Below, piece by piece: positions 12,370 through 15,696 of a stretch of DNA of 24,000 nucleotides. The position numbers and the translations under genes are program-made. Position 1 is the first letter of the stretch. Each line of letters begins with the position of its first letter. Origin of the DNA: an uncultured Gammaproteobacteria bacterium (GTDB lineage Bacteria > Patescibacteriota > Microgenomatia > UBA12405 > JAHJSD01). Location: NCBI GenBank assembly GCA_964468355.1, contig CAYXSV010000006.1:5452-29451 (forward strand), written 5' to 3'. A model generated the notes under the pieces. It saw nothing but the letters and a program-made list of their open reading frames with translations. It was not told the origin of the DNA and searched no databases.

Positions 12370-12393
12370 GGACAATCCTAGGATTGTCCCTAC
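12370..12393 (-). repeat. REP-like element: GTAG tetranucleotide abutting a perfect 20-bp palindrome
   Basis: The minus strand reads GTAG-GGACAATCC-TA-GGATTGTCC. The palindrome spans 12370-12389 and the GTAG is at 12393-12390. It lies 18 nt downstream of the RayT-like stop codon. Confidence 0.5.
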
Positions 12394-12410
12394 AATTACA
12401 TGAATGACTA

Positions 12411-12977
12411 CTAACTATCAGGATTATTTCTATCAATGGACCAATTAATCGGATTATTAGAAATATATGTGCGAATTTTATATAGTGATTTTTCATTACG
12501 GATAATGTGGTCATAAAATGACCGTTGCCATAATTTCCCCTCAAACGGTTTCCATCTACTATTTTTTACCTTGCTGATATATCTATTAGTCGTCATTGTT
12601 TTAAACCACTGAATTACTTTAGACAAATTAAAATCATCTTTTTGAGGACAGACACACTGGTCTGTCCCTACATTTTTTTTATTTGTAGGGGCGGACCAAT
12701 GTGTCCGCCCTGATTCAGGTGAATAAATCACTATTGCGTGAATATGGTTTGGCATTATTTGGTAACAATCAATTTTTGTGCCGTAAAAACGTTCGGGCAC
12801 CTTCAGCCACCATGTCCGAATCATTTCTCCAACTTCATTCAATCTTACTTTTCCATTTTCAATTTTCCCAAACCAACACTGTAGTTTAAACGTACAAATC
12901 GTAATATAATACCAGCCGGGCGCAGAATAATCGTAATCAGGTAACCGGTTTCTTTTTCTTGGAGATGAAATTACCAT
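12411..12977 (-). mobile_element. RayT / IS200-like HUH Y1 transposase (COG1943 family)
   Basis: 188-aa ORF with an HUH motif in IMPNHIHAIV and the catalytic Tyr region KLWQRSFYDHIIRNE. The conserved IQWFKTMTTNRYI helix is present. No second IS605-type orfB and no obvious terminal repeats are seen, consistent with a domesticated, REP-associated single-gene form. Confidence 0.85.
12646..12710. repeat. REPIN-like doublet of two GTAG-hairpins in inverted orientation, embedded in frame in the RayT-like CDS
   Basis: The plus strand reads GGACAGAC-acactg-GTCTGTCC-CTACA-ttttttttatt-TGTAG-GGGCGGAC-caatgt-GTCCGCCC. This gives two 8-bp stems with 6-nt loops. Each stem is abutted by GTAG on its own strand, and the two GTAG flanks can themselves pair (CCCTACA/TGTAGGG). 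Confidence 0.5.
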
Positions 12978-13037: not shown

Positions 13038-13111
13038 GGGCGGTTAGCTCAGTTGGCTAGAGCGTTTCTTTGACGTAGAAAAGGCCAGGGGTTCGAGTCC
13101 TCTACCGCCCA
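13038..13111 (+). tRNA. tRNA-Val (anticodon GAC)
   Basis: Hand-folded cloverleaf: acceptor GGGCGGT/ACCGCCC, D arm GCTC-AGTTGGCTA-GAGC, anticodon arm TTTCT-TTGACGT-AGAAA, T arm AGGGG-TTCGAGT-CCTCT, discriminator A. CCA is not encoded. Confidence 0.9.
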
Positions 13112-13174
13112 CCCACGTACCAGTACAAGCACGGTACATGGCGGGCTTGCCTCGCCGTAGTCACAGACGAAGGC

Positions 13175-13248
13175 GGGCCGTTAGCTCAGTCGGCTAGAGC
13201 GCTGTCCTGATAAGACAGAGGTCTCAGGTTCGAGTCCTGAACGGCCCA
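13175..13248 (+). tRNA. tRNA-Ile (anticodon GAU)
   Basis: Hand-folded cloverleaf: acceptor GGGCCGT/ACGGCCC, D arm GCTC-AGTCGGCTA-GAGC, anticodon arm CTGTC-CTGATAA-GACAG, T arm TCAGG-TTCGAGT-CCTGA, discriminator A. CCA is not encoded. Confidence 0.9.
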
Positions 13249-13253
13249 CATTA

Positions 13254-15696
13254 TCACTTCGTACTTTTTTCTTTATACCAAAGCTTTATTAATTCTATTC
13301 CAATTAGATCCAGAAAACCGAATATAAAAACTATCAACAGCAACCAAGGGGGCAAAGGAATAGTACTAAAAATCTGACCAAGAAAAGGAACATAGGCCAC
13401 CAGTAACATAGACATAAAACCAATTAACACCGAAAAATTAAGTGTTTTGTTTGAAAAAGGATTAAACTCCCAAATATTTCTTGACAAACTGCGGGTAGCA
13501 AAAACAAAAAGTAGAGAATCAAAAGCCAAAGACAAAAAAACAATTGTCCGCACTATTTCTATTGAATATCCCAAATTAAGAAAAAATAAAAACAGGCCGA
13601 CTAATAAAATATCACTTACTAGGCCAACAGTGAAAATAATTGTCTTCACTTCTTTGTCTAAAAGCCGTGTATTTTTATCTCTCGGCTTTTGTTTCATTAC
13701 ATCACTAGTTCCTTTTTCATAAGCTAAAGACAGTGCCGGCAAACTGTCTTCAAACAGATTTACCCACAATATTTGGACCGGCAGTATCGGTAAGGGCAGT
13801 TTAAACGCAAAACTAAATCCAATCAGCATTAATTCAGTAAAACTCCCGGAGAGCAAATAAACAATAACTTTTCTAATATTTTCAAATATAATTCTGCCCT
13901 GTTCAACCGCAGTAATTATCGTTGAAAAGTTTGAATCCATTAAAACCATGTCGGCAGTTTGTTTGGCAACATCGGTTGCTTCCCCAACAACAATTCCAAT
14001 ATCAGCTTTTTTTAAAGCTAAGGCGTCATTAACTCCGTCGCCCATCATTGCTACTGTTTTTCCATTTTTTTGCAGTGCATTAACAATTTTAATTTTTTGT
14101 TCTGGTGATATTCGATAAAAAAGTTTGATTTCCTCAACTTTACCGGCCAAAGCAGATGCGGAAATTTTTCCCAAACTCTTTCCGCTCATCACCTCCGAGG
14201 ATTTCAAAGGACCATGGTTAAGATCCAAACGGTTAATTACCGCAGCTGCTGTTTGATAATAATCTCCGGTAATAACTTTTAATTTAATTCCGGCTTTTTT
14301 AGCCAATTTTAAAGATTTTTTTACTCCTTTTCTAGCCGGATCAGAAAAAAAGACCAACCCTTGAAAATCAACGTTAACTCCCTGCCAATTGTTTTCAACC
14401 AACTTTTTCCAAACGTCTTCTTTTATTGCACCAACGGCAATTGCCCTAAAACCCTCGGTAGTTTTTTCTTGTAATTTATTTTCCCAATCATTAACTTCCT
14501 CTTTTTTTAATTGCGAGTTTTTTAATAAAATTTCCGGCGCCCCGTAAATATAAATTATTCCATTCATTTTTCCGGCAGAAAACTTCCGCTGAGCAGAAAA
14601 TGGAAGCTGTTCTTCCACCTTCTCTAACAAATCTTCTCCGCCGGTAAAACTTGAGGTCTTATCTTTAATCCAGTCCCACAAGGCAATATCTACGGCATTA
14701 ACCAAACTGTTAGCAATAACCAGGGCTTTTTCCACTTCTGCTTTGTTTTTCGTTTCAACTTCAACCACCCGCATCTTACCTTCAGTTAAAGTACCGGTTT
14801 TATCAAGACAAATTACATTTACCGCCCCCAAAGTTTCTGCGGCCAATAGTTTACGAACCAGGCCCCTTTTTTTAGATATCCTCTTCATTCCAAGCGCTAA
14901 AACCATGGTTACCGAAATTGCTAAACCTTCAGGTATAGCAGCAACAGCCAAACTGACCGATAAAGTGAAAATTTCTTCGAAACCTCGTCCCAGAATTAAT
15001 CCTTCGACCATAACAATCAAGCATAAAATGCCGATAATTAACGTCAAAGTTTTTGCTAACTTCTGCACCTGAAGTCTTAAAGGAGTAGATTCACCGACCG
15101 TTCTTTTCAGTTTTGAAGCAATCTCCCCCATTCTCGTTTTTTTACCGGTTTTAGTAACTGAAAATTCAGCTGTTCCCGAAACTACAGTCGAACCCATAAA
15201 AACCTCTTCTTCCTCCTTTTTCGCCACTGGTCTGGACTCACCGGTCAAAATTGCTTCATTAACGTAAAAATCTCTTGAGTTGATAAGTTTTCCGTCAGCG
15301 GGAATTGTTTGACCTCTTTTTACAATAACAACATCTTCCGGAACAATATCAACCGCTTCAATTTCCTGTTTCTCCCCCCCCTCTTAGAACAACGGCTTTC
15401 GGTTTAACTATCCCCCTTAAAGACTCTAGGGCCTTTTCAGACTTGTATTCTTGAAAAAAACCAAGACCGGTATTAACAACAACTGCCAAAAAAATCACCC
15501 CGGCATCAATCAGCTCTCCTAAAACTAAACTTAAAAGGCCGGCAAAAAAAAGAATATATATTAATGGAGATTTAAATTGACTTACCAAAACTGACAGCCA
15601 AACTACTTTTTGCTGACGTTCAATTTCATTAGGGCCGTACTGATCCAACCTATTCTTCACTTCCCTATTGGTTAAACCGGAAGTTTTTTTGGGCAT
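13254..15696 (-). pseudogene. P-type (E1-E2) cation-transporting ATPase, PEGL type (Ca2+/Mn2+-like, P2 group), split by a 1-nt frameshift in a G8 tract
   Basis: The N-terminal ORF 15358-15696 carries the cation-ATPase N-terminus (GLTNREVKNRLDQYGPNE plus TM1-2). The downstream ORF 13254-15248 carries LTGESRPV, AAIPEGLAISV, CLDKTGTLT and MMGDGVNDALALKKADIGI. The gap between them translates in the second frame as EKQEIEAVDIVPEDVVIVKRGQTIPADGKLINSRDFYVNEAI, the actuator domain. Removing one G from the G8 run (15374-15381) fuses everything in frame. Confidence 0.85.

Follow-up and report, generated by a model that had tools for sequence, protein, structure and literature searches.

REP elements beside and within the reading frame of a probable subclass 2.4 RAYT gene from an uncultured bacterium

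When a transposase-type gene carries, inside its own coding sequence, hairpins of the kind that its enzyme class handles, it must be asked what these hairpins are, how they come to be translated, and whether they are tolerated passengers or elements acting in cis. The case considered here lies in a stretch of 24,000 nucleotides from an uncultured bacterium (assembly GCA_964468355.1, contig CAYXSV010000006.1, positions 5,452 to 29,451), referred to as the window, in which a minus-strand open reading frame (ORF) at 12411..12977 is associated with three hairpins, each footed by the tetranucleotide GTAG. The ORF is, with high confidence, an intact gene for a REP-associated tyrosine transposase (RAYT, TnpA-REP) of TnpA-Y1 subclass 2.4, or RAYT Group 4, with repetitive extragenic palindromic (REP) elements both flanking it and lying inside it, the latter as a REPIN-like doublet. 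By analogy, the three hairpins would be the kind of REP that this class of enzyme binds and cuts on single-stranded DNA (ssDNA). The TnpA-REP of Escherichia coli reportedly binds the folded REP on ssDNA and reads its 5' GTAG foot (Ton-Hoang 2012; Messing 2012, 4ER8), and it is said to cleave and rejoin the strand through a metal bound by the HUH motif and a single tyrosine.

According to Quentin, Siguier, Chandler and Fichant (2018, BMC Genomics 19:475), in-frame REP insertions in the loop between strand β3 and helix αC are the 'unique feature' that sets TnpA-Y1 subclass 2.4 apart. Since such insertion is a published hallmark of the subclass, the locus is best regarded as a further member of it from a new host lineage.

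The three GTAG hairpins and the enzyme that encodes two of them

All three GTAG-footed hairpins listed by the first-pass annotation are present in the sequence, each with a perfect stem, and the combination of foot and palindrome marks them as REP-type elements. Internal REP 1 (12685..12710, plus strand) consists of GTAG followed by GGGCGGAC/CAATGT/GTCCGCCC and is antisense to the RAYT gene, appearing on the coding strand as a hairpin followed by CTAC that encodes the peptide G-R-T-H-W-S-A-P-T. Internal REP 2 (12646..12671, minus strand), GTAG followed by GGACAGAC/CAGTGT/GTCTGTCC, lies in the sense orientation and encodes V-G-T-D-Q-C-V-C-P, an instance of the word 'VGADxRVxP' that recurs in the family. 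The spacer of the doublet (12672..12684) was first read as T8ATT and is in fact 13 nt of A/T, namely A T8 A T3, which encodes N-K-K-N and forms the loop of a long REPIN-type hairpin. The flanking extragenic REP (12370..12393, minus strand), GTAG followed by GGACAATCC/TA/GGATTGTCC, has an ssDNA folding z score of -3.4 and begins 17 nt past the RAYT stop, one fewer than the 18 originally counted, in the 99-nt gap before the following minus-strand gene. The base of the stem is GGG/CCC in the element at 12685-12710 and GGA/TCC in the other two, and the 10-mer TGTCCCTACA recurs, as reported, at 12385-12394 and 12663-12672. Both internal hairpins are translated in frame by the RAYT ORF, again as first described, within ...NHIHAIVIYSPESGRTHWSAPTNKKNVGTDQCVCPQKDDFNLSKVIQWFKTMTT..., also given as ...SGRTHWSAPTNKKNVGTDQCVCPQK....

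These hairpins stand apart from the sequence around them. The motif GTAGGGRC occurs at three sites in the window, all at this locus, against a shuffle mean of 0.46. G+C-rich stems are rare among the perfect 8-bp hairpins of this 36% G+C stretch, being limited to a handful that includes all three GTAG hairpins. The internal doublet folds at -19.1 kcal/mol as ssDNA (z -6.1 against shuffles) and at -43.6 kcal/mol as RNA (z -8.9); for both molecules, the minimum-free-energy structure pairs the two REPs with each other in one long hairpin of REPIN type, which bears out their description as a REPIN-like inverted doublet. A region of 740 nt is identical in five metagenome contigs that are independent of one another and come from five samples, and the agreement of these independent assemblies excludes the assembly chimera that had been entertained at the outset.

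The encoded protein of 188 amino acids, placed by the ORF list and profile matches among the RAYT or TnpA-REP proteins, is a Y1 HUH nuclease of the subclass 2.4 type. Pfam Y1_Tnp matches it at E 1.1e-9 and the NCBIfam equivalog NF047646 (REP_Tyr_transpos) at 61.9 bits, both over residues 112-177 only, because the REP insert splits the domain match. NCBIfam transpos_IS200 gives 32 bits, under the cut-off of 55 that is the criterion for an IS200/IS605 TnpA; unlike such a TnpA, the protein carries RAYT-type motifs (WQ..., YIxNNP), and no tnpB adjoins the gene among the ORFs of the window and of the matching contigs. A profile built from 51 homologues recovers the E. coli TnpA-REP structure 4ER8 (E 3e-6), with the match falling into two blocks that flank the insert. 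An AlphaFold2 model computed on the alignment of these homologues has a predicted local distance difference test (pLDDT) score of 87.4 and a predicted template modelling (pTM) score of 0.80, and its 30 best Foldseek matches (E <= 0.001) consist entirely of Y1 HUH transposases, of which 4ER8 has the lowest root-mean-square deviation, 3.7 Å. Profile, model, structural search and motifs thus concur with the first-pass identification of the gene as encoding a RAYT/TnpA-REP-type Y1 HUH enzyme.

The catalytic apparatus is complete on the minus strand. The HUH motif P-N-H-I-H occupies residues 76-80 (12738..12752, from the sequence and its translation), and M75, P76, H78 and H80 are invariant across the 51-sequence alignment. 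The catalytic-tyrosine motif Y-I-S-N-N-P occupies residues 171-176 (12450..12467, from the translation and the alignment), which places H80 and Y171 91 residues apart. In E. coli TnpA-REP, the GTAG guide is bound by W94, Q95, W99, E100, H101 and R104 (Quentin et al. 2018). Their counterpart in the window is the segment W150-Q151-R-S-F-Y155-D156-H157-I-I-R160 (12498..12530), in which, by hidden Markov model alignment to 4ER8, W150, Q151, H157 and R160 align with W94, Q95, H101 and R104, while Y155 and D156 are conservative replacements of W99 and E100.

Between these motifs lies the segment coding for the β3/αC loop, residues about 91-117 (12627..12707, minus strand, delimited by AlphaFold2 and DSSP), which is mostly REP sequence. 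The loop is modelled with a block pLDDT of 53-54 and assigned as coil by DSSP, between a strand at residues 78-85 and a helix at residues 118-140; the two GTAG hairpins encode residues about 89-111, inside this interval, and the corresponding alignment columns are hypervariable in length. The earlier proposal that the doublet occupies a tolerated loop linking the HUH strand to the helix that follows agrees with this low-confidence coil and its variable columns. The in-gene REPs are read through in frame as what the model shows to be a disordered surface coil of roughly 25 residues, which leaves the HUH, WQ...H..R and tyrosine motifs intact. A single-sequence search of the PDB gave designed SAKe beta-propeller repeats as top matches through the loop peptide (residues 77-106, 12660-12749), which were rejected as a spurious compositional match.

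In-gene REPs across homologues, close relatives and genomes

At E values under 1e-5, the protein search yielded 1,873 homologues, 163-325 amino acids long. For the DNA scan, 80 homologous loci spread over many phyla, including those of Nostoc, Anabaena and Planktothrix, were combined with the window to give 81 genes. In the 51-sequence alignment, the interval from the HUH motif to the helix IQWFKTMTT is very variable in length and yet composed of recurring words, VGADxRVxP on the one hand and GxHxGSP, GRTHRSAPT or GQPQGVAPT on the other, which are GTAG hairpins translated in either orientation. At least one GTAG hairpin occurs in the post-HUH loop of 64 of the 81 genes, and the density of such hairpins falls from 2.29 per kb within the genes to 0.27 per kb outside them. 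The layout GTAG-hairpin ... hairpin-CTAC is found in 26 genes, a single double-foot element in 12 and one copy in 21. The first-pass suspicion of a family-wide, undescribed feature is therefore right as to the family and mistaken as to novelty, the insertions having been described by Quentin et al. (2018).

The stems behave as DNA palindromes and not as by-products of a peptide. Their mean length is 8.9 in the observed genes against 3.8 after synonymous recoding of the same peptides. For covariation, 46 distinct 26-nt loop elements were picked by a GTAGG start and by loop letters, a choice independent of seven of the eight stem pairs. In these elements, 97.6% of stem cells are paired, compensatory changes are seen at five stem pairs, cells changed on both sides number 63 against 14.3 in shuffles, and the covariation score of 0.484 (0.169 in shuffles) collapses in all slid registers. 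G.T pairs are nearly missing, at about 6 of 368 cells, which is what a DNA palindrome used on either strand would be expected to show. The stems are thus kept in homologues by compensatory change instead of being freely broken by synonymous substitution, the latter being the outcome that would have told against the first reading. Additionally, in loci of up to 20 kb, in-gene hairpins have a mean best identity of 0.82 to external hairpins of the same locus and of 0.59 to those of other loci, and in 34 of 55 loci an external copy is at least 95% identical to the in-gene one. The in-gene REPs are DNA-level palindromes, and the encoded peptide does not account for them.

The arrangement in the window is a minor variant. 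Among the 81 scored genes, the window alone has inward-facing feet (hairpin-CTAC, A-rich spacer, GTAG-hairpin), an order common to its closest relatives (proteins P0002, P0003 and P0006; loci L210, L206 and L207). The hairpin-CTAC element is identical at 24-26 of 26 nt across the window, L206, L207 and L210, and the GTAG-hairpin at 26 of 26 among the latter three; internal REP 1 matches in-gene copies of L206 at all 26 positions, the protein there being 47% identical. The gene cores of the same four loci are 61-69% identical, with third codon positions at 47-56%.

Turnover appears to proceed by units. The syntenic orthologue L209, with the same neighbouring genes at 73-83% nucleotide identity, has one double-foot REP (GTAGGGAACGCAGATCTGCGTTCCCTAC) at the site of the REPs in the window and lacks both the 24-nt unit equivalent to internal REP 2 and the flanking REP. 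At L206:5830-5990 and L207:10280-10390, REP units are repeated in tandem and in frame, the copies being in progressive stages of decay, for example NGRIHVDINGRTRVDDNGRTHGSAPT, and a unit of 51 nt is exactly duplicated in L206. The RAYT gene of L209 (L209:561-1085) is also a mosaic relative to 12411-12977 of the window: identity is 80-88% at both ends, much as in the neighbouring genes, and drops to only 24-62% in the centre (HUH strand, REP loop and αC), where the helix reads HGFKSTVTRK in place of QWFKTMTTNR. A second paralogue of the window genome was considered as the source of this divergent centre and is unsupported by the identities.

Further copies in the same genome were sought over about 44 kb, comprising the window and 10 kb past each end, walked via neighbouring proteins. 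A second, decayed RAYT copy lies at L211:15800-16270, about 4.3-4.7 kb past window coordinate 1 and about 17 kb from the RAYT gene; it retains an N-terminus MVILSPRKRNR and has suffered a large N-terminal deletion and a frameshift ahead of WQRSFYDH. Inside it lies a double-foot REP (GTAGGGACAGGTCGCGACCTGTCCCTAC), three further GTAG REPs flank it, and the same hairpin family thereby recurs in the genome, answering the initial concern that no other copies might exist. In all, seven or eight REP copies were counted in the 44 kb, every one within the two RAYT loci.

Metagenomes were scanned with the pattern GTAGGGACA[AG][AT]C..G[AT][CT]TGTCC, which returned at least 120 stretches (L086-L205). Contigs of the source sample do not appear among the matches listed for the GTAGGGACA-type hairpin, and in 161 of 168 of these listed matches the hairpin is distant from any RAYT gene; elsewhere, this hairpin is a dispersed REP. 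Among the same matches, it is common in environmental contigs of 29-70% G+C and often forms inverted pairs 10-40 nt apart.

Resemblance to known systems and neighbouring features

Subclass 2.4 is characterised by the signatures NH[IFV]H, WQ and YIxNNP, by a median HuH-Tyr distance of 88 amino acids and by an 8-residue insertion where helix αB ends, and every one of the 100 sequences in Bertels' RAYT Group 4 is placed in it (Quentin et al. 2018). At the end of αB, the alignment of the window's protein to 4ER8 is short and weak. Group 4 is frequent in Cyanobacteria, Chlorobia and Caldilineae, and its flanking 16-mers are moderately abundant (Bertels, Gallie and Rainey 2017). The protein of the window conforms in its NHIH, WQ and YISNNP motifs, in its length of about 190 residues with no C-terminal extension, in its enlarged HuH-Tyr distance and in its hypervariable β3/αC insert of in-frame REP sequence. 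A REP with a 5' GT[AG]G foot no more than 1000 nt away, in a REPtron-like arrangement, is likewise present on the 3' flank. REPs of the subclass are either 'canonical long', with three G-C pairs at the base of the stem, or double-foot; the window has one stem of the former kind, at 12685-12710, and double-foot elements are seen in the orthologue L209 and in the second copy in L211. The locus differs in its host, an uncultured bacterium of 36% G+C in place of a published set drawn mainly from Cyanobacteria, Bacteroidetes and scattered phyla, in the inward-facing feet of its doublet, and in two of its three stems, which start with GG-A and not with three G-C pairs. Moreover, its external REP lies on the 3' flank alone, whereas the 5' flank is occupied by tRNA-Val and tRNA-Ile.

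With E. coli TnpA-REP (RayT, subclass 2.2; 4ER8), the protein shares its fold, the HUH motif and single catalytic tyrosine, the counterparts of W94, Q95, H101 and R104, and, putatively, a substrate class made of a GTAG foot and a hairpin. The E. coli gene, however, contains no in-gene REP, its β3/αC loop is about 12 residues long against about 32 in the window, and the enzyme has a C-terminal extension, while E. coli REPs have bulged stems and hundreds of dispersed copies. The doublet resembles the REPINs of Pseudomonas (Bertels and Rainey 2011) in pairing two inverted REPs across a short spacer into one long hairpin and in being tied to a single-copy RAYT; those REPINs are extragenic and number hundreds of copies, whereas the doublet here is intragenic and translated and has no dispersed population in the 44 kb surveyed.

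REPs lying in frame within other protein genes have also been documented (Di Nocera et al. 2013, BMC Genomics 14:522). These and the Rickettsia palindromic elements (RPEs) are comparable in being palindromic repeats read in frame, singly or as dimers, that add 20-30 extra residues tolerated in loops; their hosts, however, are DNA-repair and other housekeeping genes, with insertions at scattered sites. In the present case, the host gene is that of the repeat's own presumed enzyme, and the same loop is used throughout the family. No functional study after 2018 on the in-gene REPs of subclass 2.4 was found in the literature searched.

As regards the neighbourhood, the plus strand carries tRNA-Val(GAC) and tRNA-Ile(GAT) at 13038-13249, directly upstream of the RAYT start and divergent from it, with a G+C-rich spacer of 61 nt between them; an Rfam search returned nothing beyond these two tRNAs, and there is no REP on the 5' flank of the RAYT gene in the window. 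Scans for promoters and terminators gave consensus matches only and were not used as evidence. They flagged the flanking REP as terminator-like on the minus strand, and this element may act as a terminator or stabiliser of the transcript. They also flagged the plus strand at 12646-12684, where CTACA and T8 come after the internal hairpin GGACAGAC...GTCTGTCC; this T8 run corresponds to the Lys-Lys codons of the loop. Farther away, a P-type cation ATPase is broken near 15380 by an indel of 1 nt into minus-strand ORFs at 15358-15696 (112 amino acids) and 13254-15248 (664 amino acids), while L083, another assembly of the same population, has a single gene of 813 amino acids; the split may be a sequencing error or, alternatively, reflect strain polymorphism or pseudogenisation. 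Among the homologues, proteins P0017, P0060, P0075, P0083 and P0116, of about 320 amino acids and with 96-97% query coverage, contain Pfam PF02021 (YraN/UPF0102) and PF08378, which suggests a fusion of RAYT with a YraN nuclease.

Weighing the explanations and their meaning for the family

The preferred explanation is that of an intact subclass 2.4 RAYT whose REPs are carried within its coding sequence as tolerated inserts. The REPs would have entered the loop-coding segment through the enzyme's own cleavage and rejoining of ssDNA, through gene conversion, or through both, and would be renewed there by the same activity or by conversion with other REP copies, while selection would retain only in-frame, stop-free versions. 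Such a process would produce gains and losses of whole units, tandem arrays, and a match between the in-gene elements and the REP family of each genome. Several observations weigh against this account. The REP_Tyr_transpos score is below the curated cut-off of 80. Within the window, internal and flanking REPs are only 55-64% identical, and the term 'cognate' therefore rests on their common GTAGGGRC foot and stem type. Outside the two RAYT loci, no dispersed REPs were found in the 44 kb of this genome, and in L206, L207 and L209 none was found outside the gene within 11-20 kb; with REPs so confined, a substrate population for the enzyme is hypothetical. The idea of a passive passenger is weakened by the strong frame bias, 53 of 60 sense-oriented in-gene REPs being read in the frame GTA-GGG (Val-Gly) despite a +1 frame that is free of stops in 58 of them, and by an identity of in-gene REPs among relatives that far exceeds that of the gene cores. 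Conservation and bias agree with a repeated homologous replacement of the in-gene copies, or their conversion, from other REPs; they would also agree with selection for the DNA element as such, and they agree less well with a purely neutral passenger.

Selection on the element is the more serious of the alternatives, though an unlikely one: the in-gene REPs would be selected cis-acting DNA or RNA elements and not tolerated passengers. The enzyme may act on its own gene or mRNA by binding or cutting it, in autoregulation, as a self-limiting or self-cleavage switch, or in unit-wise remodelling of the loop, and in small genomes without dispersed REPs the in-gene copies may be its main or only substrate; alternatively, the gene may keep a protected 'master' REPIN that links enzyme and substrate. 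The near-identity of REPs in genes that have otherwise diverged, their retention in one loop across phyla, the strong RNA hairpin in the middle of the ORF, the frame bias and the restriction of REPs to the gene in the small-genome relatives L206, L207 and L209 all speak for such a role. It has to contend with the 17 of 81 homologues that lack a detectable in-gene hairpin, with the orthologue L209, which has just one, and with the free variation of copy number, order and orientation, and the conservation itself could be obtained by repeated conversion from other REPs, which this genome possesses. That the conserved words (VGADxRVxP, and GxHxGSP or GRTHxSAPT) are themselves the object of selection, as a functional loop with palindromy as a by-product at the DNA level, is highly improbable: the words do recur in many homologues and the Val-Gly frame does dominate, but synonymous recoding almost never restores the stems, whose pairs covary in Watson-Crick fashion, the element follows the extragenic REPs of its own genome, the two orientations yield unrelated peptides, and the loop is modelled as structureless (pLDDT about 53). 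Least credible of all, to the point of being negligible, is an artefact, whether chance palindromes, an assembly chimera or a dead pseudogene with inserted junk. The presence of just three copies in the window and a Pfam match limited to the C-terminal half of the protein might invite it; the shuffle statistics speak against chance, five independent assemblies agree, the ORF is uninterrupted, retains every catalytic motif and has a confidently predicted fold, and the same architecture is found in hundreds of homologues. The reading of an intact RAYT with tolerated REPs is accordingly retained.

The feature itself was published in 2018, and the locus of the window mainly extends in-gene REPs to another lineage, with a minor variant of the arrangement. 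What is added is quantitative, namely the covariation of the stems, the match of in-gene REPs to those of the same genome, the frame bias, the conservation of REPs above that of the gene, and their unit-wise gain and loss. There is also a practical consequence for annotation, whose models under-score RAYT proteins with in-gene REPs because the insert splits the domain match. A subfamily of genes that carry their own substrate provides a natural test bed for the function of RAYTs and for the seeding and upkeep of REP populations, and the quantitative points could turn a passing remark of the literature into a testable question, that of whether the in-gene REP is a passenger or a cis-element.

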